In this document: piece by piece, positions 13,226 to 32,821 of the stretch
How positions within the stretch are numbered: the first letter of the stretch is position 1
How the letters are laid out: every line of letters begins with the position of its first letter
Assembly: GCA_965248265.1 (NCBI GenBank)
Contig: CBDFJF010000001.1
Location: 672,001-736,000, forward strand
Direction of reading: 5' to 3'
From: Candidatus Latescibacterota bacterium
GTDB lineage: Bacteria; Latescibacterota; UBA2968; UBA8231
Length of the DNA: 64,000 nucleotides
Program-made: the position numbers and the translations under genes
Notes under the pieces: model-generated
The model's input: the letters and a program-made list of their open reading frames with translations, nothing else
Database searches by the model: none
What the model was told of the DNA's origin: nothing

Positions 13226-13266
13226 AGCAAACGTCTATCACCGGAGCGGCCGCGGTCCGCCAGCGA

Positions 13267-13310
13267 GAATCAGTCAAACGTGTGATGCTCGGCGGGAATC
13301 AGAGTGATAT
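13267..13310. repeat. 44-bp palindromic intergenic repeat, copy A
   Basis: GAATCAGTCAAACGTGTGATGCTCGGCGGGAATCAGAGTGATAT; 37/44 identical to 29846-29889. Confidence 0.7.
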
Positions 13311-13672
13311 TACGACGATCTCGAGAGACGCCGCTGTGCTACGTCGAGTCCCTGCAGCATCTCCTCTACCAAGGCTTTGTGGTGTAGGATTATCTGACGG
13401 ACATATTCGAGCTCGTCGGACGATCTCGCGTAGTGCAGCTTGAAGTCAGCCGGGTTCCAGAAACTCACCCAGCGTTCTTCGGCGCTTGTGAAGTAGACTG
13501 GTTCGCCGCTAGCCAGATATCGCGCCGCCATCTCGAATATGTCTCCTGGGTCACCCAGGTCACCAGGAGCCTCATCGACCTCGAGGGCTTCGTTCACTCC
13601 AAGGGACCGCAACCGTTCCAGAAGCTGTTGGGATTCTTCCTCCATGGGCTCGTAGGGATATAGCCGTTCCAT
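13310..13672 (-). CDS. hypothetical acidic protein
   Basis: AGGAG RBS, 120 aa, directly downstream of the recombinase. Confidence 0.65.
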   Translation of the reverse strand: MERLYPYEPMEEESQQLLERLRSLGVNEALEVDEAPGDLGDPGDIFEMAARYLASGEPVYFTSAEERWVSFWNPADFKLHYARSSDELEYVRQIILHHKALVEEMLQGLDVAQRRLSRSS

Positions 13673-13699
13673 GAGTTTTTCTCCTGTCGTGTCGTGTGG

Positions 13700-14638
13700 T
13701 TAGGTGAGAGTACCGGCATCGAGGCTCCTGATCGCCTCCACAAGCTGCTGAGGGCGCGCCTTCGCGTATCTCAGAGCCATCTCCATCGATCTATGTCCCA
13801 TCAGCTCCATGATCCGATCGAGCGGCACACCCCTGTCCCTGAGCCTTGTAGCGAAGGTGTGGCGAAGCTGATGGAGGTGGACGTGCCCGACCTGCGACCT
13901 CATTCCAGCGCTGTGCAGCGACCTCTTAATGTCGCCGAATCGAATCACTGGCTGATCATGCATCGCCAAGGCCGGCTTTAGCTGTGCCAGCAGCGACCAG
14001 ACTCGATCCGTCATCGGGATCACGCGATAGTCCTTGTTCTTCGACTGCCGCACAGTCACCGTACCAGCCTCGAAATCGACATCACGCCAGATCAATCGTT
14101 GGATTTCCGAGCGTCTCATACCCGTGTCGGCTGCCATGATGACCACCTGTCTGGTGCGCTCCGGGCATGCTTCGATCAGCGATTCCAGCTCAGCGTCGCT
14201 GAGGGCGTCTGGTACCGTGCTCTGCTCCTTCAGCATCGTGACTCTGGATGTGGGGTCATCGGTGATGTAGTCCCAATTGCGCGCCGTTTTGAACAACGTT
14301 TTCAACGTCGCCAGGTAGCGGTTGGTTGTGGACGCGGTGACCCCGTCGAGGTTCCGCCGGCGGGTCAGATACCGATCGATCTGGCGGGTGGTGATGGATT
14401 CCAGGGGTAGGTCGCCAAACTCGTCATCCAGCTTCCGGAGCATGCCTGACAGACCTCGCCAGGTGTTGGGGCTCCAGCCGCCGAAATCCGTACGGAATTC
14501 GGCGAGAAACTGGCCGAAGGTGCAGCTCGTATCGCTGTCTGTAGCTGGGTTACACTGCCTATGCCCCTTTGCGGTCGCGGTCGTGGACCGTGCGCGCAAG
14601 TTCAAAGACCTCTGCAGTGTGTCGGTCATCTTGCTCAA
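13700..14638 (-). CDS. tyrosine recombinase/integrase (XerC/D-like), copy 1
   Basis: Catalytic R (TGMRRSE), K (QSKNK), HQLRH, GH and Y (LRYAK) all present. Confidence 0.92.
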   Translation of the reverse strand: MSKMTDTLQRSLNLRARSTTATAKGHRQCNPATDSDTSCTFGQFLAEFRTDFGGWSPNTWRGLSGMLRKLDDEFGDLPLESITTRQIDRYLTRRRNLDGVTASTTNRYLATLKTLFKTARNWDYITDDPTSRVTMLKEQSTVPDALSDAELESLIEACPERTRQVVIMAADTGMRRSEIQRLIWRDVDFEAGTVTVRQSKNKDYRVIPMTDRVWSLLAQLKPALAMHDQPVIRFGDIKRSLHSAGMRSQVGHVHLHQLRHTFATRLRDRGVPLDRIMELMGHRSMEMALRYAKARPQQLVEAIRSLDAGTLT

Positions 14639-15480
14639 CTGCTCAATCCACCTCCCACGGCATCGGTCTTCTCATGGGAGTCGACCCGAGACACATCACC
14701 AAGTCCCTTCCAAAGGACACGCCGCAGCGAGTCGAGTTCGGAGGTAGCCGGCAACGATTCGACTTGCCGGCCATGGGTCACAAAGGGGCCTCCGCATTCG
14801 GCAGGCAGATCGATCTCTATGGACTCGCCTCCTCCCGGCTGGTTGAGATGGACGCGAGCGTCACTGGTAGACCGTATTGGCAGCACAATGCTGGGCTGCA
14901 ATTCGAATGGCTCGAACCAGGCCAGCTGATGCGCCAGTTCGCTCAGCTCCCAACTGTCGAAGCACTGGTCGAGGAGTTCGATTTCGCTTGAGCTGCCATT
15001 CTCGACATTGATACCAGGAAACCCCCGATATGTGCACGTGCGTTTCTCACCACCGCGGGTGAAGTGCAGCAGGATCGTGCCAGAGTCTTTGAGCCCGAGT
15101 GCATACAGCGTGTGGAGCGTTGGAGCATCAGGCAGTTCAGGCTCTGGATAAAAACTCGCCTGAGCGTTCTCGATACCGGACTGAAGATCACTCATCAGCT
15201 CCGCTTCCTTGCGGACAGCTGCCCGGAGGTCGTACAGCTCCTCCGGCGTGCTGGCATTCCGGTACGTCAAGGGGCCCTCGAGCGCTCCCAGCCCTGATTC
15301 GACCTCGTTCTCGAAGTAAACCGGTACTCCTGAAGCCATGAGGTCGGTCACCATTGAGAATACCTCCTCGCGGTCGAGGCACAGCGATAGCTCGAGCTCT
15401 GCCGACTCCACTGGGCCGTTAGCAGCCTTGAGTATCTCGATTGCTGCTTGCTGATCGGGTTCAAGGTAGATGGGTGTCAT
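14635..15480 (-). CDS. winged-HTH domain hypothetical protein
   Basis: GAGGAGG RBS before ATG 15480. The N-terminal GPVESAELE...REEVFSMVTDLMASGVPV region resembles 30844-31191. Its stop overlaps the recombinase start (ATGA). Confidence 0.6.
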   Translation of the reverse strand: MTPIYLEPDQQAAIEILKAANGPVESAELELSLCLDREEVFSMVTDLMASGVPVYFENEVESGLGALEGPLTYRNASTPEELYDLRAAVRKEAELMSDLQSGIENAQASFYPEPELPDAPTLHTLYALGLKDSGTILLHFTRGGEKRTCTYRGFPGINVENGSSSEIELLDQCFDSWELSELAHQLAWFEPFELQPSIVLPIRSTSDARVHLNQPGGGESIEIDLPAECGGPFVTHGRQVESLPATSELDSLRRVLWKGLGDVSRVDSHEKTDAVGGGLSS

Positions 15481-15624
15481 CGCGGGACCTCCTCTGTGGT
15501 TGAGAGCTGGGGCTCTGTAATGCCCGATGTCGCTCGACGGGCGTTCTTGAGGCCCAAAAGTGACTGTGATCTGTCGATCTGATCTCTTCATCAGGGCAGA
15601 TTCAGGGGCACTCGGCTTGAGTGT

Positions 15625-16137
15625 TCAATTGCTGAACGGCAACTTTGTACATCCCACAGACACGCCGAAGACCTCGAATGGATTGTGCCAGTCGTCGTCG
15701 AGGTCGAAGGTTCCTTGGCATTGGTCTCTGGCTCTGCGCTGAAGTCGCTCGAAAGCAGGGTCCTCGGCTCGTGCGACTATGTGCCGATCGCCAAACTTAT
15801 CGTGGCGAGTCAGATACCGAAGAAGCTCGAGGATCTCTGACCGAGTGAAGAGGAAGTCAATTGTGTCTTCGGCGAACATTTTCTCGTCGCCGTCCAACTG
15901 GTCGTACTCTGGGATCAGCAGGCGATACATGTTCACCGTGTGTTTACGTCCAAGTCCGTACCAGATGAGGATCTCGCTCGCCGAGGGTCCAGTGGAAATT
16001 GAGTAGACTCCAAAGAGATCGCTTTTCACTTGATCGATGCTTTCAATGATCCTGAACAGCTTGTACAGAACGACGCAATCAGACCTCCCAGCATATTGGT
16101 GTGCCGGCGCAGCTTCTCCCGACTCGGATGACCTCAT
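15625..16137 (-). CDS. hypothetical protein
   Basis: 170-aa ORF, co-oriented within the module. Confidence 0.5.
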   Translation of the reverse strand: MRSSESGEAAPAHQYAGRSDCVVLYKLFRIIESIDQVKSDLFGVYSISTGPSASEILIWYGLGRKHTVNMYRLLIPEYDQLDGDEKMFAEDTIDFLFTRSEILELLRYLTRHDKFGDRHIVARAEDPAFERLQRRARDQCQGTFDLDDDWHNPFEVFGVSVGCTKLPFSN

Positions 16138-16150
16138 GGCTCAACGAATG

Positions 16151-16588
16151 TCATCGCCTTGCCCCTTTTGAGGCCGAGGTGCCGTTGAGGACTTTCTGGA
16201 ATGCCCCACCTTGCGCTACTGGATCCGCAAGGCTCAACAAGCGCCGAAGCCGACCCTCCGTAAGCAGAGAGATCCGCTCGTCATCGTCGTTAATGCCGAG
16301 GGCCTCCGTTTGGATGTCCTGCGGTAAACCGAGGAGGCGCAGATAATTGGCGATGGTGCTGCGTGGAGTACCGATCAAGCGAGCTAGTTCGGCCTGCGAA
16401 TCGGCCTGTCCAGATTCCAGAAGATCCTGGTAGTGCAGGGCTTGTTTGAGGGCGTTCGAATGTCTCTCTAACTTGAGGCGGCCAGGTTTTCGGTCTTTTC
16501 GACCTATCTGGATGTAGGGAGTGGTTCTCCTATGCCCTTGAAAAACATGAAACTTATCCCACACCAGCCCAAAGTTCGATGAATCCAA
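16151..16588 (-). CDS. ParB/Spo0J C-terminal-like HTH protein, copy 1
   Basis: ALHYQDLLESG..DSQAELARLIGTPRSTIANYLRLL.LP; conserved in three copies; start uncertain. Confidence 0.75.
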   Translation of the reverse strand: MDSSNFGLVWDKFHVFQGHRRTTPYIQIGRKDRKPGRLKLERHSNALKQALHYQDLLESGQADSQAELARLIGTPRSTIANYLRLLGLPQDIQTEALGINDDDERISLLTEGRLRRLLSLADPVAQGGAFQKVLNGTSASKGARR

Positions 16589-16955
16589 CGTTTGGGCTAC
16601 CAGATGTTACGTCTCGCTGAACCCTTGACACATCGTGGTCGAGGAGGGCGAGGCGGATTTGATCGGGGGTCCAGACGAGGTGGTTGATACGGAGGCGCAC
16701 CAGTTCCCTCCGCTCCTCTGGAAGGGCTTCCCGGTAGAGATCACCAAAGGTCGTCAGCGACTCGGTCATGGACTGGGCGCTGACGGCCTTTTCTTTTGCT
16801 GCCTCGATCTCCATGTCCAGGGACAGGATCTCATCATCGAGCTGCTCGGCCTGCTCCTCCAGCTCGTATATTTTTTTGCTGACGGATTTCATGCTCTTAC
16901 GGCGCCCCGCAAGCCCCTCTACGAGGGCGTCGATCTGGTCCTGCGCCCGGCGTCG
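16554..16955 (-). pseudogene. C-terminal remnant of a large serine recombinase (coiled-coil tail)
   Basis: ...QIDALVEGL...KIYELEEQAEQL...PEERRELVRLRINHLVW...GSP. The 5' part is lost at an abrupt junction near 16955. A paralogous stump lies at 32481. Confidence 0.6.
16574..16602 (+). mobile_element. att-like site resembling a tRNA 3' end (junction 1)
   Basis: GTTCGATGAATCCAACGTTTGGGCTACCA, lying inside the 3' end of the serine recombinase remnant. Confidence 0.6.
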
Positions 16956-17775
16956 AATTCAGAGGCAGTACGGCGCGGAAATCATCCCCGTACGCCCTGC
17001 AGGCCTGCCCCAGTTCTCCTTCCACGGCCGTCAACTCGCCAAGCACATCTTGCCGTGTCTGGATTGGGATCCCCCCGTCTTCCGTCGCCTTCCTCAGGGC
17101 TTGGATGTCCTGCACAAGCCGCCTCCGAATCGCCGCCTGAATGGCGAGCTGGCCTGACTGCGCCTCCACGTCCGTGAGACCCGGGCCTGGCAGCGGCTCA
17201 TTCACCCACTCCGGCTCTCCCGCGTAGACCTCGATCTCGTCCACGAAGGTGTACCGCCCCACGGGCCACACAACCAGGCTGACGTAGCGGCCGTGAGTCC
17301 TCAACTGGTCCGTGACAAATCGATGTACCCCATACTCCGTTGGTGAAGGGACTGGGGAGTGTGCCGCGCTCAACCCCACCAGCTCCCCGATCTCATGGAA
17401 TTCCTCGTCTTCACCCGCCGTGAAGACAAAGATCGCCTCCGGCCACTTCACGCTCGCAGTACCGGCCGCCGTATGGAACGAAATACCCCGTATCGGCCTC
17501 ACCGCACCCAGGTCCAGCGTCACGATCACGGGCTTCACTCTGACCCAGCCCACTGTCGACAGCTGTGTCCAGAGACTCTCCTCCGTCTGATCGTACACCC
17601 CATCCGTCAGCTGCGTGACATCAGCCGCGTCCTTGCAATGCCTGTAATTCGGCGCCTGCTCCATCGTGTAGCTCGCCCCCAACGCAATGTTCTCGCTCGG
17701 ACGATCCACCGCCGTGTCCTGCGCCCACACCCGTCCCACTATCAACAACCCTATTGCTGCCAATGTCCGTTTCAT
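16956..17775 (-). pseudogene. secreted discoidin/galactose-binding-like protein, C-terminally truncated
   Basis: Signal peptide and NIALGASY, QLTDG, LDLG, GRYV, FVDEIEVY motifs. The frame runs into recombinase sequence after AVLPLN. Confidence 0.6.
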
Positions 17776-18069
17776 CGCTTGTCTCCCGCTATCTGATCCC
17801 AGGCCTGCTGAGAATCTGCAGGAACGTGACCTGTGACCGTCACGCGTTGCGGAGAAGAGGCATTTCTCCTTGGCCTCTCAACGTAAGCTGCGCCCGGTAG
17901 ATCGAACAGGGCGCGAGGTTGCATGCCGAGTCTCCGCTTGTGATGGGAAATAGGAGCCGTGAAACACGCGCTCGCTTTTCCTATGTTATCGCTCACATCT
18001 CAGGCGATCGTTATCGCCCACATCTCGACGATCACAGGCAGACCTCCATGAGCAAGGACACTACCGTCA

Positions 18070-21000
18070 GTGAAGGATGAAGTCCCCATTGCGCTGTCTC
18101 TGTCCGGTGACGCGCGGATCGAGAGACTGCTCGAAGACGCCGTCGTCATCCCGGCCTTCACCTGCCGGCTGGACGGCTTCACGAACGACACGGTCACCGA
18201 GTACGCGAATGCCTCCGTCATCCGGCCGCCGTCCGTGTGCCGGGCCGGTCTCGTCAGCGAGCTGCGCGACGTCGTCCGCTCCCGCCGGCGGGGCAGGTAC
18301 TACCTCGGGTTCACGATGTACGCCGCCGCCGGCGCCGATGAAGCCGTCGACATCTGGATCGGGCACCGGTGTGTGGCCCGCGCGGCGCTGGCGGACCCCG
18401 ACAACCGCCTGCATCTGTTTTTTGCGCCCGAGAAGTTTGACTTCAAGGGGGGCGAACCGATCCGGTTGGTGACGAATGAGACTCGGGGCCCGTGCAGAAT
18501 CGAGAACGTAGTTCTGCTCGCCAGGAAGCCCCGTGGCGGCGGCGACGGGCTGAAGGTCGTGGCGCCCGCGGTGGATGTCCGCACTGATGGGGAGAGGCCG
18601 GTCGCCTACGTCACCTGGCGGACGAATCGCCCGGCGTCGGGCCGCCTGCGCTGGGGGCTGAAGGGGGCGAAGAAGAAGACGGTGCTCCTGCGGACCGCAT
18701 TGTCGAACCACGAGGTGGTGATCGGCAATCCGGCGGCCGGCGACTATGTGTACGAAGTCGATCTCGCGGACCGCTCGCGACGGCTCGAGGCACAGTATTC
18801 GGGTTCGTTTCGCGTGCGTCCGCCCAGAAAACACTCGGGGATTGAGAAGGGCCGTTTTCCCCTCGAGGTTGCCCAGCGATGTGAGCGCGCCTGGCCGGTG
18901 AGCGTGGGAGTGCCTTTCAAGAGAGGGACGGTCTCGAACATCGGCTCGATTCGCGTCATCGACTCATCGAAACGCGCATTGCCGACCCAGGTGGCGGCGC
19001 AGACCCGTTGGGACGATGGCTCGATCCAGTGGGCGCTCCTCGACTTCGAGAGCGACGGAGTTTCAGACTGTGCGGTCGAATTCGGGAAGTCGGTGCGCAA
19101 CGACACCCCTGGGGGAGTGCGAGTGCGCTCGTCGAGAAGACATGTCGAGGTCGTGACAGGGCCGCTCCAGGTCCGCATTCCGCGCGATCGGACCGTGATC
19201 CCCGGGCTGGTCGAAGTGCTGGAGGACGGCTCCCGCCGCTCGATGGGAGAGGCGACGGCGGTCACCGTCGTCGACGCCGATGGACGCGCCTATCGCAGCG
19301 GCGCGCCCGATTCGGTGACGGTTGAGGCCAGCGGCCCGGTGAGGGCTACCGTCTGCCTGGAGGTAACCCACCGGAGTCGCGGCGGGCGCGCATGCCTCCG
19401 GTCGGTCTTCCGGCTGCATTTCTTTGCCGGCAGCCGCCGCGTCAGGGTCGAGCACACGTTCGTGAACGACGTGTCGGACCGCGATTTCGAGCGGGTCCAG
19501 GCGTTGTCGCTCCGCATCCCCGTCGAGGTCGGCAACGTGCGGACATTGCAGGGCAAGGGCTGGCGGTCGCGAGCTGCCCGTGCGCGCATCGAGCAGCTCG
19601 AGGACGACCGCTTCGATCTCTACGAGGCGAGCGGCGTGCGCACGCGCGTGCAGCGGGTAGGTGGCGGCCGCCGGAGCAACGGGGCTGCATCCGTCACCGG
19701 TGATCGAGAGAGCGTGTCGGTGGCCGTCCGCGACTTCTGGCAGAATTACCCCAAAGCGCTGACTCTGGCGCGGGATTCGATCTTCGTCGAGATCCTCCCG
19801 CCCCTGGATTCGTCCCGCTACCCGCGGGGCGGTGAGCTGGAAGACCGGCTCTACTACTACCTGCTCGATGGGCACTACAAGCTTCGCAAGGGGCTCTCTC
19901 GCACCTCCGAGTTCTGGATTTCCTACGGGCAGGGCGAGGCGGCAGAACTCGCCGCCGCCGTGGCGTCTCCTCCCATCTACCGCGCCCCCCTGTCGCACTT
20001 CAACGACAGCGACGCCTGGACCCGTTTCCCGCCCAAGGACCCGTCTCCGCGACCGGAGTACGAGGAGTGGGTGGCGGCCGCCCGCGACGTCTACGAAAAG
20101 GACAGACAGACTACGCGCGCCTACGGCATGCTCAACTACGGAGACTGGTACGGCGAGGGGACATACAACTGGGGCAACATGGAGTACGACACCCCGCGGT
20201 GTTTCCTGCAGGAGTTCATCCGCGGCGGTGACGTGTCGTTCTTCCGCTGGGCCGATGAAGCGGCCAGCCACCTCGTCGACGTCGACACGTGCCACGCCGA
20301 TGGCGGTCCGATCCCGAAGCATTCACAGTACCTGCATTGCGTCGGTCACGTCGGCGGGTACTACCCCGAAGGGTACCGGTCAGCGATGTTCTCGACGCTG
20401 ACGATGCCGTCGCACACCTGGGTCGAAGGCCTGTTCCTCCACTCCCTGCTGACCGGCGACCGCAGAATCCGCGACAGCGCTATCGCCGTCTCCGAAGCCC
20501 TGGTCGGCGACATGGTCAACGACTACGACTTCACCAACTGCCGCGAATGCGGCTGGCACCTCATCCACCTGTCCGCCGCCTACCGGGCCACCGGGCGGCG
20601 CGTCTTCCTGAACGGCGCCCGCATCATCGTCGATCGCGTGCTCGAGCGGCAGCGCTCGTCAGGCGGCTGGGACCGGCTGATGGTGCCCGGCCACTGCCAC
20701 TGCGATCCGCCCCGGCACACCGGCAACGCGGGCTTCATGGTCGGCGTCCTGATGGTCGGGCTCAAGCGCTTTCACGAGGCCACCGGAGACGCCAGAGTGA
20801 GCGGCGCGATCGTCAGGGCAGCCGACTATTGCATCGAAGCCATGTGGGTGCCGGAAAGCCGCGCCTTCCGATACACGTGCTGCCCGTCGTCCTACGTGCA
20901 CCCTGCCGACATGGGAATGCTCAAAGGGATCGCCGCGGCGTACCAGTTCACCGGCGCAGAGCGTTTCAAGCAAATCCTGCTCGCCGGCGTGGAGACGGCG

Positions 21001-21105
21001 ATCGGCGGCAGGCGACCGCGGCCTCACCGGGGCGCGGGCAAGAGCATCTGCATGCCGATGCGCGGCGCCCTGCAGGTGATCGCTTCGCTGCCGGACGAGA
21101 CGTGA
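18070..21105 (+). CDS. exo-rhamnogalacturonan lyase-like (PcRGLX/YetA family) protein
   Basis: WPVSVGVPF, RWDDGSIQWALLDF, VRDFWQNYPK and YGMLNYGDW..WGNMEYD motifs; (alpha/alpha)-barrel-like C-terminus. Confidence 0.7.
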   Translation: MKDEVPIALSLSGDARIERLLEDAVVIPAFTCRLDGFTNDTVTEYANASVIRPPSVCRAGLVSELRDVVRSRRRGRYYLGFTMYAAAGADEAVDIWIGHRCVARAALADPDNRLHLFFAPEKFDFKGGEPIRLVTNETRGPCRIENVVLLARKPRGGGDGLKVVAPAVDVRTDGERPVAYVTWRTNRPASGRLRWGLKGAKKKTVLLRTALSNHEVVIGNPAAGDYVYEVDLADRSRRLEAQYSGSFRVRPPRKHSGIEKGRFPLEVAQRCERAWPVSVGVPFKRGTVSNIGSIRVIDSSKRALPTQVAAQTRWDDGSIQWALLDFESDGVSDCAVEFGKSVRNDTPGGVRVRSSRRHVEVVTGPLQVRIPRDRTVIPGLVEVLEDGSRRSMGEATAVTVVDADGRAYRSGAPDSVTVEASGPVRATVCLEVTHRSRGGRACLRSVFRLHFFAGSRRVRVEHTFVNDVSDRDFERVQALSLRIPVEVGNVRTLQGKGWRSRAARARIEQLEDDRFDLYEASGVRTRVQRVGGGRRSNGAASVTGDRESVSVAVRDFWQNYPKALTLARDSIFVEILPPLDSSRYPRGGELEDRLYYYLLDGHYKLRKGLSRTSEFWISYGQGEAAELAAAVASPPIYRAPLSHFNDSDAWTRFPPKDPSPRPEYEEWVAAARDVYEKDRQTTRAYGMLNYGDWYGEGTYNWGNMEYDTPRCFLQEFIRGGDVSFFRWADEAASHLVDVDTCHADGGPIPKHSQYLHCVGHVGGYYPEGYRSAMFSTLTMPSHTWVEGLFLHSLLTGDRRIRDSAIAVSEALVGDMVNDYDFTNCRECGWHLIHLSAAYRATGRRVFLNGARIIVDRVLERQRSSGGWDRLMVPGHCHCDPPRHTGNAGFMVGVLMVGLKRFHEATGDARVSGAIVRAADYCIEAMWVPESRAFRYTCCPSSYVHPADMGMLKGIAAAYQFTGAERFKQILLAGVETAIGGRRPRPHRGAGKSICMPMRGALQVIASLPDET

Positions 21106-21112
21106 CTGCGAG

Positions 21113-22321: not shown

Positions 22322-23655
22322 GCGACAACAAGATCGTCCTGGTCGGCGGCGGCAGTTGCGGCTGGATCCCGAAGATCGTCAAGGACATGATGCTGACCGA
22401 GTCCATCGCTGACTCGCGCTTCGTCCTCTACGACATCGACAGAAAGGCGGCCGAGCTCGTCGCCGCGGTCCTGGAGAAGCTCAATGGGAGCTTGAAGACG
22501 GGAGCGACCTTCGTCCCGACGGACGACAGGCAGGCGGCTTTCGAGGGCGCCGACTACTTCGTCATCACCATCTCGACCGGCGGCCTGGACGCCATGGCCC
22601 ACGACCTGGCGATACCGGAGGAGTACGGCATCTACCACACCGTCGGCGACACTTCTGGACCGGGAGGATGGGCCCGCACCGTGCGCAACTTCAGCGTCTT
22701 CGAGTCGCTCGCGGAGGATTTCAACACCTACGCCAGTGGCGCGGTTGTGCTCAATTATACGAACCCCCTGACCACACTCACGGATGTCCTCTCACGACTG
22801 TGCCACGGTCCCGTCCTCGGACTGTGCCACGGTCTCTTCGAGAACATCCACAAGCTCATGGACATCTACGGGATCGAGGAGGAAGAGGAAATCGCCGTCA
22901 GCTACGGTGGCCTCAACCACTTCTTCTGGATCACCGAGGCCCGCACCAGAGACATCGACATCTTCACCGACCTGCGGGACAGGGTCGCTGAGGAAGGGCT
23001 CACGAGCATCCTCGAGCAGGCGGCTCAGAGAACCGGCAAACCGGCAGAGCCCCGCGAGCTGGCGACGGCGCTCTTCAACGAGACCGGGGCCGTCCCGTAT
23101 TTTGGTGATCGGCACACCTGCGAATTCTTCCCCTGCTACATCACCAGTCCCGAGGCGATGGAGCGGTACAAACTGGTGCGGACGACGGTCGACGAACGCC
23201 GGAAGGGCCTCCGTGAACGGCGGGAGAGGTTAGTAGAATTGACCGACGGCGAGATCCCGGACGAATACTTCGTGCGCAGCCGCGAGACGGCCGCCGACAT
23301 CATATCCGCCCACGCCACCGGCGGCGTCTTCATCGACGTCGGCAACGTCCCCAACCAGGGCCAGATCGCCAACCTCCCCGCCGGCACCATCGTCGAGACC
23401 GCCGTGCGCGTGGACCGGAACGGGTTTTCGCCGATCTGCTTTGGGCCCTTGCCCGACTCCGTGCTCCCGGCCGTCGAGCCGTATGCCCACCTGTTCGGCC
23501 AGGTGATCGAGGCCTGTTTCCGCAAGGACCGGAAGATGGCGTTGCAGGCATTGCGGATGGATCCTGTGTGCTCCCACCTCACCGGCGACCGCGTCGTCGA
23601 GCTGGGCGAGCGCCTTCTGAAAGCGCATGAGGCCTTCGTGCCGGCACTCAGATGA
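22318..23655 (+). CDS. glycoside hydrolase family 4 (NAD-dependent alpha-glucosidase/galactosidase)
   Basis: KIVLVGGGS, GDTSGPGG, LNYTNP, GLCHG and GLNHFFW motifs; ATGA overlap with the upstream gene. Confidence 0.92.
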   Translation: MSDNKIVLVGGGSCGWIPKIVKDMMLTESIADSRFVLYDIDRKAAELVAAVLEKLNGSLKTGATFVPTDDRQAAFEGADYFVITISTGGLDAMAHDLAIPEEYGIYHTVGDTSGPGGWARTVRNFSVFESLAEDFNTYASGAVVLNYTNPLTTLTDVLSRLCHGPVLGLCHGLFENIHKLMDIYGIEEEEEIAVSYGGLNHFFWITEARTRDIDIFTDLRDRVAEEGLTSILEQAAQRTGKPAEPRELATALFNETGAVPYFGDRHTCEFFPCYITSPEAMERYKLVRTTVDERRKGLRERRERLVELTDGEIPDEYFVRSRETAADIISAHATGGVFIDVGNVPNQGQIANLPAGTIVETAVRVDRNGFSPICFGPLPDSVLPAVEPYAHLFGQVIEACFRKDRKMALQALRMDPVCSHLTGDRVVELGERLLKAHEAFVPALR

Positions 23656-23944
23656 AGGCAGCGAGCGCGGGCGCACGACTGATGGCCGCTGAGATGTCCT
23701 CGAAGGAGTCGCCGGCCGGCGGAGGCGGCGCTACATCGCTTTGAAGTATGCGGCGCGGCCGACCACCGACGCACACGTTGAGTCCTTGAGGATGTGGTCT
23801 CCGAGCGTGTTCAGGCCCGAGGCGGTGCTCTTGAACAGCGATCGGCCGCGCATTCGGGGTCTGGTGGCAGATCTCGTGGAGCTGGGAAGAACGGATTAGC
23901 ACTCGCGGCCCCCGCAACGCGAATGGCAGCCGCTCGCCGACCAT

Positions 23945-25983
23945 GTTGAGTAGCCGGGGCTAGTCACCTAGCCCCAGCCCTCACCAGAGCCCAGCGAGCA
24001 GATTTCCCGCACTGGGCTCCTCCGTTAACACGTCTCGCGGTTAAGAAAACCAGATCGATACGACAATTCGAGGTTGCGGTAGCGGATACTGCCGAAGTAA
24101 GCCTCGATAGTATCTCGCCCATGTGAGGCGCGATCGCTGGCTACGGCGATTGAGCCACTTGTACCACGCCATCACTGCTGCGGATGTGAATAGGCTTACG
24201 CTGCGCCCATTCCCACTAATACCGAAGTAGTTGATGTGGCCCCGGATGCGTCGTACGAGGTCAGCGTGTTGCTCGGGGATCGGCCAATGGCGGTGTCGAC
24301 GACAGAGTCGATATAGCGCCTGTACTGATCGCCTGAGCCGATCACGCCGCGTCTTGCTCGTCAGCACCCATCGCCCCGTCCGGGCCCGTTGCCAATACCA
24401 CGTGAAGCCCAGAAAGTCGAAGGTACCTGGCCCCTTGCCCTTGATCTGCGCCTGTGATGGCCGCTCAAAAGGGATGAGCCGGGTCTTGTCCGGCTGCAGG
24501 GTCAGTCCGTATTTGTTCAGCCGCTTGCTCAGCACTTCCATCACCCGCTCTGCATCCTCCGGCAGTTCGAAACCAATGATGAAATCATCGGCGTATCGGA
24601 CCAACGTTGCTCTACGACGCAACCGCGGTCTGATCTCGACTTCAAACCACTCATCAAGGACATGATGCAGGTAAAGGTTGCCAAGCAGCGGCGACAAACA
24701 GGAGCCCTGTGCGGTGCCACGGTCCGGCGTCGAAAATTCCGCACCGTCCAGCACCCCAACGTGCAAGCACTTCCCTACGAGTCGGGTGATCGACCCATCG
24801 GGAATCCGCTCCTGGAGAAACTCCATCAGCTTGGATCGATCCAAACTGTCGAAGTAGGATTGGATATCCGCCTCCAGAATGACCTTCGCCTCCCCGTTCA
24901 TCACCACCCGATTCAACACCTTCAGGGCGTCATGGGCACTCCGTCCCGGCCGGAAGCCATATGAGCAGTCACGAAAATCCTGCTCGTAGACCGCCGCCAA
25001 CACCTCGCGTAACGCTTCCTGGACAATCTTGTCCTCGAAGCACGAGATGCCGATGGGACGGGTCTTCTTACCCTTACCGTCCTTGGGGATGTGGACTCTG
25101 CGAATGGGCTGGTGGCGCCACCGCTTACTGCGAAGCCGCTGGTGCAGATCCTGCAGATTGCTCTCCAGATCCTGCCCATACTGCTCCTTGGTCACGCCAT
25201 CCACCCCCACTGCGGCGCTCGGCTTTTGATGGTCGAACGCCCTCCGCAGCGCATCTACATCGATCAGGTGTGCGAGCGAGTGAAACTTGGCCTGCGGCTC
25301 TCGTCTCGCTCTTTCCGCTACTTCCAAAAGTCCCGGTGACATGGACTCCGAAGTCAATGCATCGGTCATGGTGCCCTCCTGAAGTTCGTATCAACACGGA
25401 CCGCCTTGGCTCCGCCGGGTCCGGTGCCAACCGTTCCCCGACTTCACAGCTACTACACGGTCCTCCGACTCCCTTACTCCGTCGGCCGCCGCTCCGGTTC
25501 CCCTCGCAAGCGACCTACCACGGTGCCCACGCTTGTTCTTGTTCGGCCACGCATGCGTGTGCTGACGCGCGGCGCGTCGGAGACTTCATCACCGGCTCTC
25601 CCGATCACCGGAATCTCCCGTGGAGAGACAAGGGCCTCCCAGGTTGCTGGATCATCCTCTGCGAGCGTGCCCTGGTCGTATCACACCCCGCCGGGGTGTC
25701 ATCGCCTCGCCCAATAGCGCCGACAACACTGCTGCCTTCAGGTACAACGGCACCCTCGGCTATCCCGGAACGTTCTGCATTTCAGGGCCGCCAATCGCAC
25801 GGCCCGCTCGCTCGCTGCCCTACTGCTTCGCCCGTCCCGTTACCGGGACGCACGCAAGGGCTCGCTTCTGGCCTGCTGGGCTCAGCTCTAGCCAGGCGGG
25901 CTTTGCACCCGCGGGACGACTAACCGTATTTCAAGAAGTATCACCTCCTTCTATTCCAACAGACCAGCCTAGCCTGGTCGCAT
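23945..25983 (-). mobile_element. group II intron, copy 1 (2,039 bp)
   Basis: Domain V GAGCCCAGTGCGGGAAATCTGCTCGCTGGGCTC, domain VI with bulged A, 3' end CTACTCAAC, 5' end ATGCGACC and an RT ORF. Confidence 0.93.
24041..25369 (-). CDS. ltrA: group II intron reverse transcriptase/maturase (no endonuclease domain)
   Basis: GVDGVT, IPK, R.IGI, SYGFRPGR, GT.QG, YADD and FDFLGF motifs plus X domain; ends without an HNH domain. Confidence 0.95.
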   Translation of the reverse strand: MTDALTSESMSPGLLEVAERARREPQAKFHSLAHLIDVDALRRAFDHQKPSAAVGVDGVTKEQYGQDLESNLQDLHQRLRSKRWRHQPIRRVHIPKDGKGKKTRPIGISCFEDKIVQEALREVLAAVYEQDFRDCSYGFRPGRSAHDALKVLNRVVMNGEAKVILEADIQSYFDSLDRSKLMEFLQERIPDGSITRLVGKCLHVGVLDGAEFSTPDRGTAQGSCLSPLLGNLYLHHVLDEWFEVEIRPRLRRRATLVRYADDFIIGFELPEDAERVMEVLSKRLNKYGLTLQPDKTRLIPFERPSQAQIKGKGPGTFDFLGFTWYWQRARTGRWVLTSKTRRDRLRRSVQALYRLCRRHRHWPIPEQHADLVRRIRGHINYFGISGNGRSVSLFTSAAVMAWYKWLNRRSQRSRLTWARYYRGLLRQYPLPQPRIVVSIWFS

Positions 25984-26213
25984 CCGTTGTAGCAGTGCGA
26001 TAACCGGTCGCGCATTGGCCGTCACCATTGCGAAGATGCGACGCAGAATCAGCCAATGTCAGCCAAGTTGACACAGGGCCAGCGTCCGGGATTCCTTAAT
26101 AGGAGCTACGAATCAAGCTCTGAGAGCACGCCATGGCGTTCTTGGCGCCCTGGTCGGAATGAGGCAGCACCAACATGGACTTCTGAAATGTTCAGTTTTG
26201 ATGGGCGGGAGAT

Positions 26214-26735
26214 ATGACGACAGGCGGACTCGTCATCCGCGCGTTTGCGCCTCACGATTGGGTTGCGCTCTGCGAGTTGTACGAACCGGCTGCTAGGAGC
26301 GAAATGGCGTTGTCGGGTACTGACCCCCGAGCCTTCAGACCGTTGCCGGAGGAGGAGGACCTGGAGGAGTTCCAGCGCCTCAATACAGCGATGGTTGCTT
26401 GGATTGATGACCGGATAGTCGGATTCGTTGCGTGGCGAGATCGTGGAGAGTGGCGCGGGGGCGGCTACCTGTCCTGGCTCTACGTCGATCCGCCATACCA
26501 CCGAAGTGGCATTGGGGATCGCCTGATGGCGGAGGCGATGGCTGCGCTCGGGGAGCAGGCGTGGACACTGACCAAGCTGGGAAACGTCCCGGCAATTAAC
26601 CTCTACCAGAAACACGGGATGCGGATCGTAAGATCTCGACCATCAGATACTTTGGGCTGTCCCCACATTGAGCTCCGGCTCGCCTTGCCGACTAGTCGGA
26701 AGTTTGACCCTGACGTGCCAAATTTCGGCGCGTGA
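26214..26735 (+). CDS. GNAT family acetyltransferase
   Basis: LYVDPPYHRSGIGDRLM and N..AINLYQKHG motifs. Confidence 0.85.
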   Translation: MTTGGLVIRAFAPHDWVALCELYEPAARSEMALSGTDPRAFRPLPEEEDLEEFQRLNTAMVAWIDDRIVGFVAWRDRGEWRGGGYLSWLYVDPPYHRSGIGDRLMAEAMAALGEQAWTLTKLGNVPAINLYQKHGMRIVRSRPSDTLGCPHIELRLALPTSRKFDPDVPNFGA

Positions 26736-27014
26736 TGTCGCGAGTCGAACAATTCGACCCAGGTCTATGATCGATTTACCCGTCGACGCCGCCATTCAGC
26801 CAGTCAATACCATGCGTCGCTGACGCTGCGTCCTAAGCAAGTAGATGCGCTTCGTAGCTTCGTCAGGCTGTAGCGGCACCTACGTGCACGTCGGATTTCC
26901 AGTGTGATTACCGGATCCGCGAGGAAGCGATACGAATGATTCTTGCCTTGTACCGGGTAGCCCCAAGGGCTGGTGATTGCGAGGCTACTTAGGTGGAATG
27001 AAAGGAGAGTTTTC

Positions 27015-27629
27015 ATGAGGTGGTTGATTTTCATAGTGGCTTTTTCAGCATCATCGGCTTTTGCCGAGTCAGACGACTCAATGGGGCACTTGATGAACCA
27101 GCCGATGGCGGTGTGGGATTCTGGCATGGATCAACTAGGTGAATTCTTGGAGCAGCAAAAGACCCTGATCGTCCCCCACACGCCTGATGGCCATCTCGAG
27201 ATCCTTGATGAGTTTGATGAGGGATATCCCCACACAGTCTGGAGTGTCGTCCGCGTGGGCTACCGGTCGGATGAGAACCGCATCGGGATTTCGTATATGC
27301 TGGTATCCGAGTCACCATTCCCGTTGGAGCTGGCAAAAGTTGCGGTTAGGACAGTAGTCGACGGTGCGAAGGCCTTTTTGAGTGTCAGGTCAGACGGTGG
27401 TGCGGTGGTTCTGCCAGGGAGATTTCGGCGCAGAGTGGCGGAGTTCTTCGAGATTCACGCCGCCGACAATCCCAGCCTGACCGGGGAATTGGTTGAGGCC
27501 TTTGACCAGATGACTACCATTCACGTCACTTTCTTGCATCCAGACCGACGATCTATCATCCTCGAAGCTCAGTCGCCCCTACTCGGTACCGATATCCACT
27601 GGCTGGAAATCCCTGAAAAACAGAGCTGA
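27015..27629 (+). CDS. secreted hypothetical protein (paralog of 5367-5870)
   Basis: AAGGAG RBS, signal peptide MRWLIFIVAFSASSAFA, LMNQPMAVWDSG motif and C-terminal SPLLG.DI. Confidence 0.7.
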   Translation: MRWLIFIVAFSASSAFAESDDSMGHLMNQPMAVWDSGMDQLGEFLEQQKTLIVPHTPDGHLEILDEFDEGYPHTVWSVVRVGYRSDENRIGISYMLVSESPFPLELAKVAVRTVVDGAKAFLSVRSDGGAVVLPGRFRRRVAEFFEIHAADNPSLTGELVEAFDQMTTIHVTFLHPDRRSIILEAQSPLLGTDIHWLEIPEKQS

Positions 27630-27801
27630 GTCAATATTCTTTGACAGCCCTTGAGAGCCAGAGGTTGTCCACGGTAATCAGATTGGAAGAGCGATTACCG
27701 CCATATTGGGTCGAAAGACGCCGTAGCCACAGATATCTGGGGATTGAAGGCATCCCGTTGAAACAGGAACGGCACGCCGATGTCTGCGCGACGAATTCGC
27801 T

Positions 27802-28260
27802 TTGATCAGGAGCAGCATGATGAGTGACCAGAACCAGCATTTTCACTACCGCAAAATACCCCAGATGGGAGAAGAGGCCCTCGGCGATTGGCTCTACCCC
27901 AATGCCCTTTACGGCGGCGGCTGTTGCGCCGGTGACCGAGCCTGCATCCAAATAGAGGGAAAGACCGAAGACTCTCTGGAACTGGTGAGCACGTTCTATT
28001 GGCGCAAATGCGGTTTTGACGGCGAACCCAAGGAAGCGACGTCCACCTGCGCCCTGGAAGGGAACAGACCCTGGTTCATGTTCCGGGCTCCTTACGAAAC
28101 CGCCGGTGGCGCGCAGGTTCGGGTCATCACCCACATCACCTCGGAGCGCTCGATCACTGTCGTTGCCATGCCCAGCGCCGAAGAGGGTTGGGTTCACCTA
28201 GATATCACCCGCGTCCCACACCAGAGCACATGGTGGAACGATCCTGACCCTGAGAGCTGA
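27802..28260 (+). CDS. hypothetical protein
   Basis: AGGAG RBS before ATG near 27818; followed by a terminator. Confidence 0.55.
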   Translation: MIRSSMMSDQNQHFHYRKIPQMGEEALGDWLYPNALYGGGCCAGDRACIQIEGKTEDSLELVSTFYWRKCGFDGEPKEATSTCALEGNRPWFMFRAPYETAGGAQVRVITHITSERSITVVAMPSAEEGWVHLDITRVPHQSTWWNDPDPES

Positions 28261-28275
28261 AATCGCCCGAAGTAG

Positions 28276-28312
28276 AAACCCTCCCGGATCGTAGTGCTCC
28301 GGGAGGGTTTTT
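28276..28312 (+). terminator. rho-independent terminator
   Basis: AAACCCTCCCGGA-loop-TCCGGGAGGGTTTTT. Confidence 0.8.
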
Positions 28313-28512
28313 CCTGGCGGCAGGACCTCTCATACCGGTAATCGGTTTGATGGTCCGACGGTCACTTCCCTCGCGCCGGTTGCGTTGGCCGAAGGATTCG
28401 GCCGCCAGCGGCTTGGTGGTGGAGCTCGGTGCAGCGCGGCTCTTCAGCGTTCCAACCGGGTTGCAGTACGGCGATCCGCACCGGCCAAGCCTGACGAGGT
28501 AGTGGAGGAGTG

Positions 28513-29343
28513 CTAATCACCCACACCTTTCGCTTTCAGCTTGCGGCTCTGTCTCTCACACAGCTTCTCCATTTCATGATAGTGATGGATCGAGTCATCC
28601 AGGCTCGCGTACACCTCGGCACCTGACCGAGCGTACTCGAGGGACACCTCTGCTTCGCCTAGCTGCTCAGAGAGCACGGACAGGCAGTAATATGCGTTCC
28701 CCAAAGGGCTGCCCCTCAGCTCCGGAATTAGCTCCTCGAGGGCCGTCACCTTGGCCGTCGTCTCAATCTCCGTGTCGAAGTAGATCGACTCCACAGGACG
28801 ATCGCCGTACGACATGCCCCAACTGCTGTGAAGCCGTCCATATTCGTAAGGATGCAGCGCGATGGCCGCTGCACGCCAGATCGCGACTCGCTCTGCCGGG
28901 TTCCGCGCACGCTTGATCTCATCCGGCATTAGGTACCCTTGGCGAACGAGAGGATGGGTCCATCCCCGCGCCCAGAAGGTGAATACGAACCCCGGCCTCG
29001 ACGTCGCGTCTTTCACTTCCATGGCGATGAATCGCCGGTTCGGCGCCTCGAGCAGCGCGGTGATCTGTTTTTCGACCAAGTCTCTCTTGCCAGCGCGAGT
29101 GGCGAGCCAGAGAATGGAGACCTCGAGGCCTGCTTCGTATTGCACCTGCAACGAATCCACCGCGAGGCGTCCACGCATGGCGAGGAAACCGTCGAGCGCC
29201 TCCTCGTGTCGCTTCTGCTCGTCGCTCAGGGACTGGATTTCCTCCAGTGCCATGGTGAACTCCGGCAGTGGGAGCTTCCGGGTGGTGGCGCATGCCGACA
29301 GACACGTCGACACCGCACAGAAGAGGGCGAGCAGCGTCTTCAT
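28513..29343 (-). CDS. putative lipoprotein with helical repeats
   Basis: GGAGG RBS and LSAC lipobox. Confidence 0.7.
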   Translation of the reverse strand: MKTLLALFCAVSTCLSACATTRKLPLPEFTMALEEIQSLSDEQKRHEEALDGFLAMRGRLAVDSLQVQYEAGLEVSILWLATRAGKRDLVEKQITALLEAPNRRFIAMEVKDATSRPGFVFTFWARGWTHPLVRQGYLMPDEIKRARNPAERVAIWRAAAIALHPYEYGRLHSSWGMSYGDRPVESIYFDTEIETTAKVTALEELIPELRGSPLGNAYYCLSVLSEQLGEAEVSLEYARSGAEVYASLDDSIHHYHEMEKLCERQSRKLKAKGVGD

Positions 29344-29845
29344 GGTTTCCCTCCATCCGAGAGCCTATCGCTTAAGCAGCGTCGAGCTCTACCCCTTGAT
29401 GAATGGTCGCTGACGATGAGGATGCCGTCGCCGTACACGCAGAGGTCATGGGCTCGTTGAGGCAGGTTTTGGGTGCCGCAGGTTGTTCCGCGATGGCAAG
29501 GAGCGGGGCCAGGCATCAAAATGAGTTGTTTCGAGGTTGGTCTCCGCCCCTCCATATTTGCATCACAGTAAAGATTCCTCCTTGCGAACACACCCATTTT
29601 GTGGTGCATGCCTCCCGGCCAACGCCGGTCCAAATATGGAGGAAGGACGGCAAAAGGCGCCATGGACGTGACACCGCTGTAGCAAGGAGTACAAGCTCTG
29701 CAAAGCCCGCTCTGGACGCTCGATGCGTGGAGACGCACCACCACGCGGGGGCCGTCCTCTCGCAGCAGATTATCAGCGGCGGACTGACGAGCGGCAACGG
29801 CGAAGCTAGTCCATCGCCGCCTATTCCCGGGTTTTCCCGCGGTGG

Positions 29846-29889
29846 GAATCAGTCAAACGTGCGATGCCCGACGGGTATCTCCGTGATAT
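29846..29889. repeat. 44-bp palindromic intergenic repeat, copy B
   Basis: GAATCAGTCAAACGTGCGATGCCCGACGGGTATCTCCGTGATAT. Confidence 0.7.
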
Positions 29890-29908
29890 GGTGATGGTCG
29901 TCGGCCTC

Positions 29909-30661
29909 TCACCGACCAGATTCCGCTGCCAACTTCACCATGCCCATGAGCTCGTCACGCACAGACCGCTTGTCTTGGAGTCGGGACTCGATGATTTGGA
30001 ACTGCGGGGGGAAATCCGACCGCACAACCTCGTGGACATCCGCCTCTCCCTTGATTCGTATGCCCTCGACGGACAGTTGCTCGGGGGGGACGCGTTCCAC
30101 ACAGATGAGTAGCTCCAGATACCCCTGATTCATCAGGAGCTGATCGTGGCGGATCTCGCGATTCACGTCGAACGAGAGGCTGGTCTGCCAGTAGGCACCC
30201 GAACAGGTCGGCTCGATCACCGTCTCATAGTAGCGCCTGCGCTCAACTGAATCGAGGTAACCAGCTTCAGATGGGCAATACACCCAATCGGAGAACTGAT
30301 TGCAGCATACCCACGTCCGGTCCGTGATGTCCTTGGTAGCCCTGATACCAAGAAACACCTGAGTGACGGTGCCACCTGGCAGTGGGGTAGTGCTGCCATG
30401 TCGCCGACGGTTGAGATATCCGAAGATGCAACGTCGTGGATCGACCCAATCGGGAATGCTCGGAGGACGATGCCGTACGTGAGCATCGTAGATCGTGTGA
30501 TGCTGATCCTCTGGATCCTGCGTGTGGCCCGCTACCAATCCCTCCTGGTAAATGCTGGGCAGCGCCTCCGGGTTGGCTCCGTGGTACAAGAGATTGGTGT
30601 CTTCGAAGTCGGGGAACAGCCAGTTCATCTGCTCCCACTCCATGATGCCAATTCGTCGCAT
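29909..30661 (-). CDS. hypothetical protein with ADP-ribosyltransferase/Tpt1-like motifs
   Basis: N-terminal LYHGA..E.L.SI.QEGL and late E.LI...VPPEQL motifs. Confidence 0.55.
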   Translation of the reverse strand: MRRIGIMEWEQMNWLFPDFEDTNLLYHGANPEALPSIYQEGLVAGHTQDPEDQHHTIYDAHVRHRPPSIPDWVDPRRCIFGYLNRRRHGSTTPLPGGTVTQVFLGIRATKDITDRTWVCCNQFSDWVYCPSEAGYLDSVERRRYYETVIEPTCSGAYWQTSLSFDVNREIRHDQLLMNQGYLELLICVERVPPEQLSVEGIRIKGEADVHEVVRSDFPPQFQIIESRLQDKRSVRDELMGMVKLAAESGR

Positions 30662-30769
30662 TCGAACAGCTCCGAAACCGGTGAAGGTCTGGCGACCCGT
30701 GCAGGCCCACGCCTTAGGAAACAGTGCAGCGTGAACCTCGTCAAGATTGGCTGCAAGACCGATAAGCGC

Positions 30770-30808
30770 GAATCAGTCGAATATCCGATGCTCGCCGAGC
30801 ATCGGAGT
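30770..30808. repeat. palindromic intergenic repeat, copy C
   Basis: GAATCAGTCGAATA-TCCGATGCTCG-C-CGAGCATCGGA-GT; 30/39 identical to copy A. Confidence 0.6.
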
Positions 30809-30843
30809 CTTGCAATGACGTCTGTCGAAGTCGGTCCCGCCTC

Positions 30844-32819: not shown

Positions 32820-32821
32820 TT

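Follow-up and report, generated by a model that had tools for sequence, protein, structure and literature searches.

Palindromic sites linked to Xer-like tyrosine recombinases bracket variable gene segments in a Latescibacterota genome and form a candidate system for inserting and removing DNA

The window studied here is a stretch of 64,000 nucleotides (G000:C1:672001-736000) from the genome of a Candidatus Latescibacterota bacterium (7.32 Mb, 59.5% GC, two contigs, C1 and C2). It contains genes for Xer-like tyrosine recombinases accompanied by short palindromic sites, and an original prediction, made from the sequence alone, had proposed that these sites bracket single genes in an integron-like gene-capture system. 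Our analysis points to a family of recombinases and sites, the latter apparently marked by past exchanges, which may insert and remove DNA segments beside the recombinase gene. The features involved are listed below, where types 1 and 2 refer to the right flanks of the sites and the E-values of sites come from an nhmmer profile made from eight site copies.

8005-8029, plus strand: type-2 half-site relic without a neighbouring recombinase (half-site pattern, sequence read)
13262-13325, plus strand: site A, type 1 (nhmmer E 1.9e-16)
13310-13672, minus strand: open reading frame (ORF) of 120 amino acids (aa), without a family in our family searches, filling the slot between site A and Rec1
13700-14638, minus strand: Rec1, Xer-like tyrosine recombinase, longest ORF 312 aa (PF00589 E 2.5e-27; XerA_Arch 120.9 bits)
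14635-16892, minus strand: upstream genes of the Rec1 module (family searches, module homology)
29841-29904, plus strand: site B, type 1, distal member of the B-C pair (nhmmer E 2.7e-15)
29909-30661, minus strand: 250-aa cargo gene of the B-C segment (no family in Pfam, NCBIfam, PADLOC or PHROG)
30713-30818, plus strand: site C, type 2, including its left flank L2 at 30713-30769 (nhmmer E 1.9e-15)
30844-31191, minus strand: ORF of 115 aa in the variable slot between C and Rec2, which may not be coding (GC content at third codon positions, GC3, 0.58; no family)
31263-32105, minus strand: Rec2, Xer-like tyrosine recombinase, 280 aa (PF00589 E 2e-29)
32087-32821, minus strand: ParB-HTH gene (32087-32518) and upstream stretch of the Rec2 module (PF17762 E 2.7e-08)
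58821-58854, plus strand: P1, partial site with a type-2-like right arm and a type-1 right flank (nhmmer E 0.0065)
59070-59771, minus strand: truncated recombinase (59070-59342) and ParB-HTH remnant (E 5.9e-51)

Sites A, B and C lie where they had been placed originally, all on the plus strand, and are the only matches in the window to a 22-nt degenerate pattern with up to three mismatches (shuffled sequences reaching three matches, 0/100). Over the whole genome, the nhmmer profile returned nine full copies, each with E ≤ 3.7e-11. Besides A (window 13267), B (window 29846) and C (window 30770), these are E on contig C1 (C1:177616) and, on contig C2, D (1145214), F (3927119), J (3930141) and, on the minus strand, I (3034457) and K (3040706). 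The same search yielded two right-half relics, P1 (window 58821) and P2 (C1:995832). A half-site pattern had four matches in the genome, namely the type-2 sites C, I and J and the relic at window 8005-8029 (reversed control, 0), so that the family occupies 12 places in 7.32 Mb, nine full copies and three relics. Five of the 12 fall within 51 kb and are all co-oriented, an arrangement reached by 2 of 200,000 random placements.

The motif is tied to the recombinase (5/5 loci) and shows no spread of the kind seen with repetitive extragenic palindromic (REP) elements. Among the weaker matches suggested at the outset, that near 8002-8044 is a real relic, though direct rather than inverted; nhmmer, run to E ≤ 10, did not recover those at 10238 and 38266, which look fortuitous. 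Two of the ten genome-wide matches to the 22-nt pattern (up to three mismatches; 0 in the reversed-genome control), called G and H, were dropped because their conservation does not extend beyond the pattern itself. Matches elsewhere to the type-1 right flank (R1) alone (22, control 2) proved on inspection to be mostly due to chance.

Numbering positions from the first G of GAATCAGTC, all copies share one layout: this left motif with a few further bases, a palindrome (GATGCTC, 3 bases, GAGCATC), GT, and one of two right flanks. After the GT, the type-1 right flank of A, B, D, E and F continues GATAT..CGATGG; the type-2 right flank of C, I and J (R2) is GTCTTGCAA, the GT being followed by CTTGCAA. 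C, D, I and J have a perfect palindrome, A, B, F and K an imperfect one, and E an additional stem base. In type-2 sites the palindrome is extended to as much as 11 bp per arm, and C is, as had been noticed, a perfect 11+11 inverted repeat about one central base. Conservation spans about -5 to +58, so the site unit amounts to some 60 bp and not to the 44 bp first put forward.

Identities among the copies range from about 76 to 92%; A and B agree at 37 of 44 positions (84.1%), exactly as originally counted, and A and C share 77.3% over 44 nt. Particular copies have further sequence in common. The left flank L2, about 57 bp long, is found at C, I and K (C and I are 75.7% identical over 103 nt, -57 to +44, by gapped blastn), and a different left flank, of about 89 bp, is common to A and F. 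At A, this flank corresponds to the last 7 codons and the 42-bp trailer of an ECF-sigma/TPR gene, 11306-13225(+), the site beginning 42 bp past its stop; at F, it is a relic of the same gene end (76.8% over 138 nt). The gene at 11306-13225(+) encodes a 639-aa fusion of an ECF-type sigma factor (regions 2 and 4) and a long TPR-containing C-terminal part.

The recombinase is present in the genome as four intact paralogs and one truncated copy, Xer-like, 270-310 aa long and 80-83% identical to one another at the amino acid level; the conserved part of Rec1 begins near a TFGQFL motif. The assignment of 13700-14638(-) and 31263-32105(-) to the tyrosine recombinases stands, with the PF00589 E-values listed above. 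The proteins consist of a core-binding and a catalytic domain only, and 9/9 aligned sequences have the same catalytic R, K, HxxR, H and Y. The best NCBIfam match is XerA_Arch, at 121-125 bits (Rec2, 122.4; cut-off 220); the models for XerC (94-99 bits, cut-off 335), XerD (84-94 bits, cut-off 330) and the integron integrase TIGR02249 (71-76 bits, cut-off 265) score lower, the last being matched in two stretches in three of the four paralogs, among them Rec2 (75.9 bits). The best PDB match of Rec2 is the XerA-like 4a8e. The nine-sequence alignment bears out the statement that the IntI insertion is absent.

Paralog pairs are separated by synonymous divergences (dS) of 0.92-1.97, with dN/dS of 0.07-0.14, indicating old copies kept by selection. 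As the copies are old but their sites are still 76-92% alike, the sites must be under selection too.

A site lies beyond the 3' end of the recombinase at 5/5 loci, 40-450 bp past the stop codon or the truncation point. Judging from the coordinates, the gap is about 40-60 bp for I and J and about 375-445 bp for A and C, and about 215 bp separate P1 from the truncation point of its recombinase. The interval itself is variable: the slot ORFs at A and C are unrelated, and the I-J pair gives no alignment from +48 to +141. The remark that sites follow the stops of minus-strand genes applies well to A, which abuts the ORF 13310-13672 (its stop codon falls within the right flank of the site), and to B, which ends 19 bp before the stop of 29909-30661. 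For C, the position is right (the site ends 35 bp before the ORF 30844-31191), but the coding status of that ORF is doubtful, given its GC3 of 0.58.

One arrangement, a distal site followed by cargo, a proximal type-2 site and a recombinase, is found three times, with segments of 924 bp (B-C), 3,022 bp (F-J) and about 6,250 bp (K-I). The recombinase-proximal sites are the type-2 sites C, I and J, and the distal ones are B and F, of type 1, and the hybrid K. As originally described, B and C bracket exactly one ORF (29909-30661), which appears DUF3841-like in the atlas alone, a lead only. The F-J segment holds a Ser/Thr kinase between two ORFs without a family, and K-I holds a TetR gene, a major facilitator superfamily (MFS) transporter, small ORFs and a PAS histidine kinase. 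Hence two of the three segments contain at least three genes, and K-I includes its own regulator, TetR. All seven cargo ORFs of at least 200 aa are co-oriented with the recombinase (7/7), the cargo being read away from it, and the GC content of the two longer segments (F-J, 53.6%; K-I, 54.9%) lies below the genome value of 59.5%. The only content that the B-C, F-J and K-I modules have in common is the recombinase.

The F-J kinase (L107:4426-5286, G000:C2; 286 aa) is matched by PADLOC PD-T4-6 models with E 4e-36, and its segment may be anti-phage defence cargo.

Evidence of exchange comes from sites K, P1 and P2, which are mosaics changing flank type at one and the same point, the GT directly after the palindrome. 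K consists of the L2 flank, a type-2 left core like that of I and C, and a type-1 right flank. It is 81.8% identical to I over 99 nt (-61 to +34, gapped blastn), and from +37 to +58 it equals B at 19 of 22 positions, compared with 6-11 of 22 for C, I and J; read column by column, type-2-specific bases run up to +35 and type-1-specific bases start at +40. The right-arm variant of C is in K fused to the type-1 flank at that GT. Similarly, the right-arm variant ATCGTTGT, which elsewhere occurs only in I, J and the 8005 relic, is fused in P1 and P2 to a type-1 flank at the GT.

Stretches of about 40 bp at 80% identity are a poor substrate for homologous recombination. Three mosaics with a single switch position are therefore difficult to account for other than by site-specific exchange at that place, and we read them as the footprint of past crossovers within the site.

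The interpretation that we favour, with a probability of roughly 0.55, is that a lineage-specific recombinase and its sites insert and remove DNA segments beside the recombinase gene, by exchange at or next to the GT. The recombinase would bring two sites together and exchange their strands at or beside the GT just after the palindrome. With a direct-repeat pair, the cargo would be excised as a circle carrying a hybrid site, and in the reverse reaction such a circle would be inserted at the recombinase-proximal site. Excision between sites of types 1 and 2 would yield a circle with a K-type site, and the K-cargo-I layout is what would be predicted if a circle with a K-type site inserted into a type-2 site. 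We infer that this recombinase would be the agent, acting on double-stranded substrates at cleavage points close to the GT, and that it may be active at present.

We also considered K(-) and J(+) as reciprocal products of a single inversion on C2. This was dropped: the core of J is completely type 2, so that K and J are not simple reciprocals. The GC-skew switch of C2 (~3.50 Mb) lies near the K-J midpoint (3.485 Mb), making skew uninformative about an inversion.

Could the sites act as nucleic acid structures, and not in recombination at all? They lie at the 3' ends of minus-strand genes, which would suit a regulatory operator, a small RNA or a structure at transcript ends. Moreover, all four transition-type mispairs in the stem (4/4) are G-T on the site strand, which keeps an RNA or single-stranded DNA hairpin paired there. 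This hints at a single-strand fold on the site strand, weakly so because at least two of the mispairs were probably inherited together. Only site C folds appreciably better than shuffled sequence (z -2.16, with a 10-bp stem and a 3-nt loop; A -0.78, B -0.21), and the suggestion that substitutions mostly keep the dyad is accordingly weak, since type-1 sites fold no better than shuffles. There is no Rfam match at the sites, nor at E ≤ 1 anywhere in 28000-31300, and a consensus scan of 29300-31400 gave no terminator-like and one promoter-like signal, not above shuffles. The better-folding strand is antisense to the neighbouring genes. The sites are not REP elements, terminators or known RNAs, and a regulatory function, which would leave both the mosaics and the strict link with the recombinase unexplained, seems to us very improbable.

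A different view would make the modules remnants of plasmid-type maintenance, combining multimer resolution and partition in the manner of Cre/loxP, ResD/rfsF or XerS/difSL, with the distal sites as decaying duplicates and the cargo never mobilised. A gene and its site forming one module is, according to the available part of PMC5357621, a hallmark of single-recombinase Xer systems. A ParB-HTH gene accompanies 3/5 modules, lying upstream of the recombinase in those of A, C and P1, and the proximal sites are perfect palindromes with the distal ones degenerate. Yet decay would not be expected to leave the type-1 right flank conserved across eight copies, nor to produce three mosaics with one junction. 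Four intact paralogs under purifying selection in one genome also fit this view poorly, as do the position of the sites away from the GC-skew switch and the presence elsewhere in the genome of stronger candidates for a housekeeping Xer, with 267 and 188 bits on the XerD model against 78-87 bits for this clade. We consider it improbable.

A further Xer-like gene, G000:C2:3483404-3484222 (114.7 bits on the XerD model), sits at the C2 GC-skew switch (~3.5 Mb) and could belong to a genuine dimer-resolution system of the terminus.

The rival that deserves most attention is tandem accretion of small integrative elements, each with its own recombinase, so that segments lacking one would be decayed and comparable to cis-mobilizable elements (CIMEs). 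The recombinase would then belong to the mobile unit and not to a fixed landing pad. Accretion and CIMEs are established concepts (PMC5704250, as far as its available text goes). Three tandem, co-oriented modules in the window, those of A, C and P1, consist of the site, a recombinase directly after it and, further on, a ParB-HTH gene. The sites that come next in this direction, B for A and P1 for C, might be the far ends of the elements, but they enclose chromosomal genes. The recombinase modules stand at five loci with unrelated right-hand neighbours. In addition, the position of A, 42 bp past a gene stop, and the gene-end relic at F are as expected of insertion at gene 3' ends.

The modules themselves extend upstream of the recombinase. 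Next to Rec1 lie 318-aa and 170-aa ORFs without a family, the ParB-HTH gene (16151-16588) and a 112-aa ORF, 16554-16892(-), which is kept in both the Rec1 and the Rec2 module. The upstream stretch of Rec2 is 78.7% identical to the Rec1 module over 564 nt, and the homology stops near 16888 on the Rec1 side and near 32821 on the Rec2 side. The remnant at 59070-59771, whose recombinase matches query residues 11-101 with 87% identity, seems from its sequence to be a decayed third module. In the J module, a serine resolvase and an HTH gene take the upstream place of the ParB-HTH gene. The 112-aa ORF, located upstream of the ParB-HTH gene, weakly resembles phrog_95, a large family of phage integrases, in the C-terminal part of that family (E 3.9e-06).

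Several observations tell against accretion. Past the recombinase side of modules I and J, nhmmer found no further site, and the points where module homology ends, 16888 and 32821, have no site-like sequence. The units that would result, A-B (16.6 kb) and C-P1 (28 kb), hold chromosomal genes, e.g., FliG and glycoside hydrolases, and in the subset of ORFs scanned (Pfam, NCBIfam, PHROGs) no relaxase, transfer or replication genes were detected. Accretion appears rather unlikely to us. The two explanations overlap, nonetheless, since in accretion CIMEs can be mobilised in cis by an integrase next to them (PMC5704250, available part).

The region 12900-32400 was also compared with the metagenome contigs (not reads) of four runs at low depth. 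In this comparison, sequence counts as unlike the window when it is less than 85% identical, and the departing sequence itself is not visible. The seawater metagenome X5 contains a 1,036-nt contig that matches 29844-30295 with 17 differences, and the other 583 nt are off the window; from the minus-strand numbering, they would continue leftwards from 29844, a position 2 bp short of site B. The run X6 has a 305-nt contig that agrees with 30567-30814 and departs from the window at +45 of site C. The cargo gene 29909-30661 is about 96-98% identical in X5 and X6, and X5 carries 17750-19050 and 21484-23708 at 98-99.8% identity. Its depth is 0-0.98 over 26571-29825 and 0.03-0.36 over 14202-16154, i.e., in the Rec1 module.

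Taken together, the contig breaks imply a close relative that has the bracketed gene with its sites, other DNA beyond them and almost no cover of the Rec1 module. The parts of the window without cover in X5 or X6 give a hint only, the depth being low. The scant cover of the Rec1 module in X5 also suits accretion.

A number of results weigh against the reading that we favour, in which the recombinase inserts and removes segments by exchange at the GT. Some concern the sites. The mosaic argument relies on three hybrids, two of them degraded, and no reciprocal hybrid (a type-1 left part with a type-2 right flank) was seen among the copies. The central 7 bp of paired sites differ (at 3/7 positions in B/C, 2/7 in F/J and 1/7 in K/I), which would hinder a classical exchange across the centre of the palindrome. 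Site A is of type 1 and yet adjoins Rec1, J lacks the L2 flank, and each recombinase has one bracketed segment at most. The recombinase modules look mobile, and their presence at five loci together with the X5 gap fits accretion about equally well.

Other results of this kind concern movement and distribution. In two runs of the likely source sample, B-C lies within one unbroken contig, 28280-31841, and neither an excision circle nor a deletion joint at B-C occurs among the 15 joints listed (contigs only). Close recombinases were sought in several collections. The best identities were 59% in 60 relatives, 49% in 76 family genomes (paralogs of the own genome excluded), 33% over near-full-length matches in metagenome contigs, 32% in plasmids and 34% in viral contigs, and in 168 phylum genomes nothing was found at E ≤ 1e-80. 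At 11 loci from relatives, with recombinases 36-59% identical, nhmmer found no site (best E 1.9).

Only one of these 11 loci has a perfect inverted repeat of at least 8 bp downstream, and the 11 recombinases are longer proteins, probably of a different subfamily. A large protein database does hold proteins 82-88% identical to our recombinases (P0001, P0003, P0004, P0006, P0008 and P0009), and the site pattern had two stray matches in the genome collection. The recombinase-and-site family is so far confined to one genome lineage.

How far, then, does the proposed likeness to integrons go? As in an integron, the recombinase stands beside one type of site and is followed by co-oriented cargo that ends in another type; the cargo varies between loci, and the mosaics are as expected from the insertion of circles at the proximal site. 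C, I and J would be the distinct, attI-like proximal sites, Rec1 with its type-1 site A making the exception. Nevertheless, the system is not an integron. The IntI-specific insertion is lacking, TIGR02249 scores stay below the cut-off, and no integron integrase above that cut-off was found in the genome. The RYYYAAC/GTTRRRY ends of attC are absent from the site sequences read, as the original prediction had recognised along with the lack of terminator U-tracts, and distal sites do not fold significantly. The recombinase here is co-oriented with its cargo, and there is no array but one 0.9-6.2 kb segment per recombinase, often multi-gene and with a regulator.

The gene-capture idea thus fared unevenly. 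Variable cargo in three places, the mosaic sites and the gene with site B in another context in X5 speak for it; of the features that define an integron, the distinct proximal site alone is present, and the segments are multi-gene, one per recombinase. Direct repeats of the site around variable, foreign-looking cargo look like a home-grown means of inserting and removing DNA. One could go further and postulate an independent, non-IntI landing-pad-and-cassette system, in which pads with a proximal site just past the recombinase stop would capture circular segments bearing a partner site, orient them outward and release them again, several pads exchanging site halves; this extension is tentative, and we would not bet on it.

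The enzyme most resembles those of single-recombinase Xer systems (XerS/difSL, XerH/difH, XerA/dif), being compact and best matched by the XerA model and by 4a8e. The sites, too, have inverted arms around a short centre, and gene and site form one module, as in the systems covered by the available text of PMC5357621. Unlike those, the recombinases score under every Xer cut-off, there are 4-5 copies per genome and 12 site places rather than one at the terminus, the sites have extra conserved flanks (GAATCAGTC to the left and R1 or R2 to the right), and second sites bracket cargo. The C2 sites are at 1.15, 3.03-3.04 and 3.93 Mb, with the skew switch near 3.5 Mb; the many copies and their distance from the switch mean that this is not the chromosomal dif system.

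In its mode of operation, the system would work most like an integron or a CIME-capturing integrase. Accretion of the ICESt1/ICESt3 type likewise involves direct repeats delimiting segments with and without an integrase (PMC5704250, available part); here no recombinase is present in B-C, F-J and K-I, one comes after each of A, C and P1, the integrase is beside the att site, and a gene 3' end is a possible target. The differences are that no transfer or mobilisation genes were found in the ORFs scanned and that two modules have no far-end site. Most integrases of phages and ICEs (integrative and conjugative elements) have an arm-binding domain, absent from the recombinases here; simple tyrosine recombinases without it serve in dimer resolution, in integrons and in small non-conjugative elements (both after the part of PMC8138268 at hand).

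Among less familiar systems, the pdif modules of Acinetobacter plasmids are gene modules bounded by Xer-type sites and thought to be moved by site-specific recombination (PMC12907356 and PMC7399989, each in its available part). They use the host XerC/XerD and 28-bp dif-like sites. Here a dedicated recombinase gene lies beside the site, and the sites are direct repeats. The flanking sites of pdif modules are in inverted orientation. The "integron-like elements" of Pseudomonas rulB have an Xer-like integrase end and variable cargo including tetR, with no attI or attC; however, they carry three recombinase genes of 385-535 aa and are whole many-kb insertions into one target gene, and the available portion of PMC4542609, the source for all of these points, describes no internal repeats of a site around cargo. 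A recombinase-in-trio (RIT) element does not fit either, as the 318-aa and 170-aa ORFs adjoining Rec1 have no recombinase domain. A full-text search of one literature library for Xer-type or integron-like cassette systems led to pdif modules, the rulB-inserting elements and classical integrons but found none with the same architecture, which is not proof of its absence from print.

The surroundings of some sites deserve mention in their own right. Orphan site D (C2 near 1145214, L109:3059-4512) has on one side a uxuA-like gene truncated at its 5' end and on the other the 3' fragment of a second gene, and an AT-rich stretch separates the two; these surroundings are the scar of an old rearrangement. 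The truncated uxuA-like gene (open frame 187 aa) is uninformative on mechanism, and a search for its displaced half yielded nothing, the eight other N-terminal matches all being paired with their own C-terminal half (8/8). To the left of orphan site E (C1 near 177616, L110:2187-3247) lies a transposase split in two ORFs (HTH_32 and DDE_3), a pair that we take to be typical of IS630-type elements.

A 153-bp non-coding repeat is present in two genome copies only, 94% identical, at window 28206-28358 and at G000:C2:3044283-3044435 (reverse), in both cases 1.5-3.6 kb beyond a distal site (B or K). At its end, it has a strong GC hairpin and then a T run, resembling a terminator, and it could be a small RNA gene or the end of an element.

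Elsewhere in the window, the 292-aa ORF 16897-17775(-), without a family, belongs to a large group of paralogs numbering more than 15 copies of 68-90% nucleotide identity, mostly at C2 1.76-1.95 Mb. A group II intron occurs in two minus-strand copies (23945-25904 and 53095-55054) that score identically in Rfam (RF02005, 99.3 bits; RF00029, 46.3 bits) and contain one 442-aa ORF apiece (24041-25369; 53191-54519), and presumably is an active retroelement.

The anatomy of the system is clean and the mosaics are a good natural record of exchange, with activity and the direction of gene flow remaining putative at the sequence level. If the segments are old accretion scars only, they reflect ordinary, though tidy, genome plasticity in a little-studied marine lineage. 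If the recombinase does insert and excise segments, it would represent a second route to integron-like gene capture, using a plain Xer-type enzyme and apparently double-stranded sites, and annotators would have to look for more than IntI and attC. A compact recombinase-site pair, with natural site variants and four paralogs, would then also be available for the study of site specificity.

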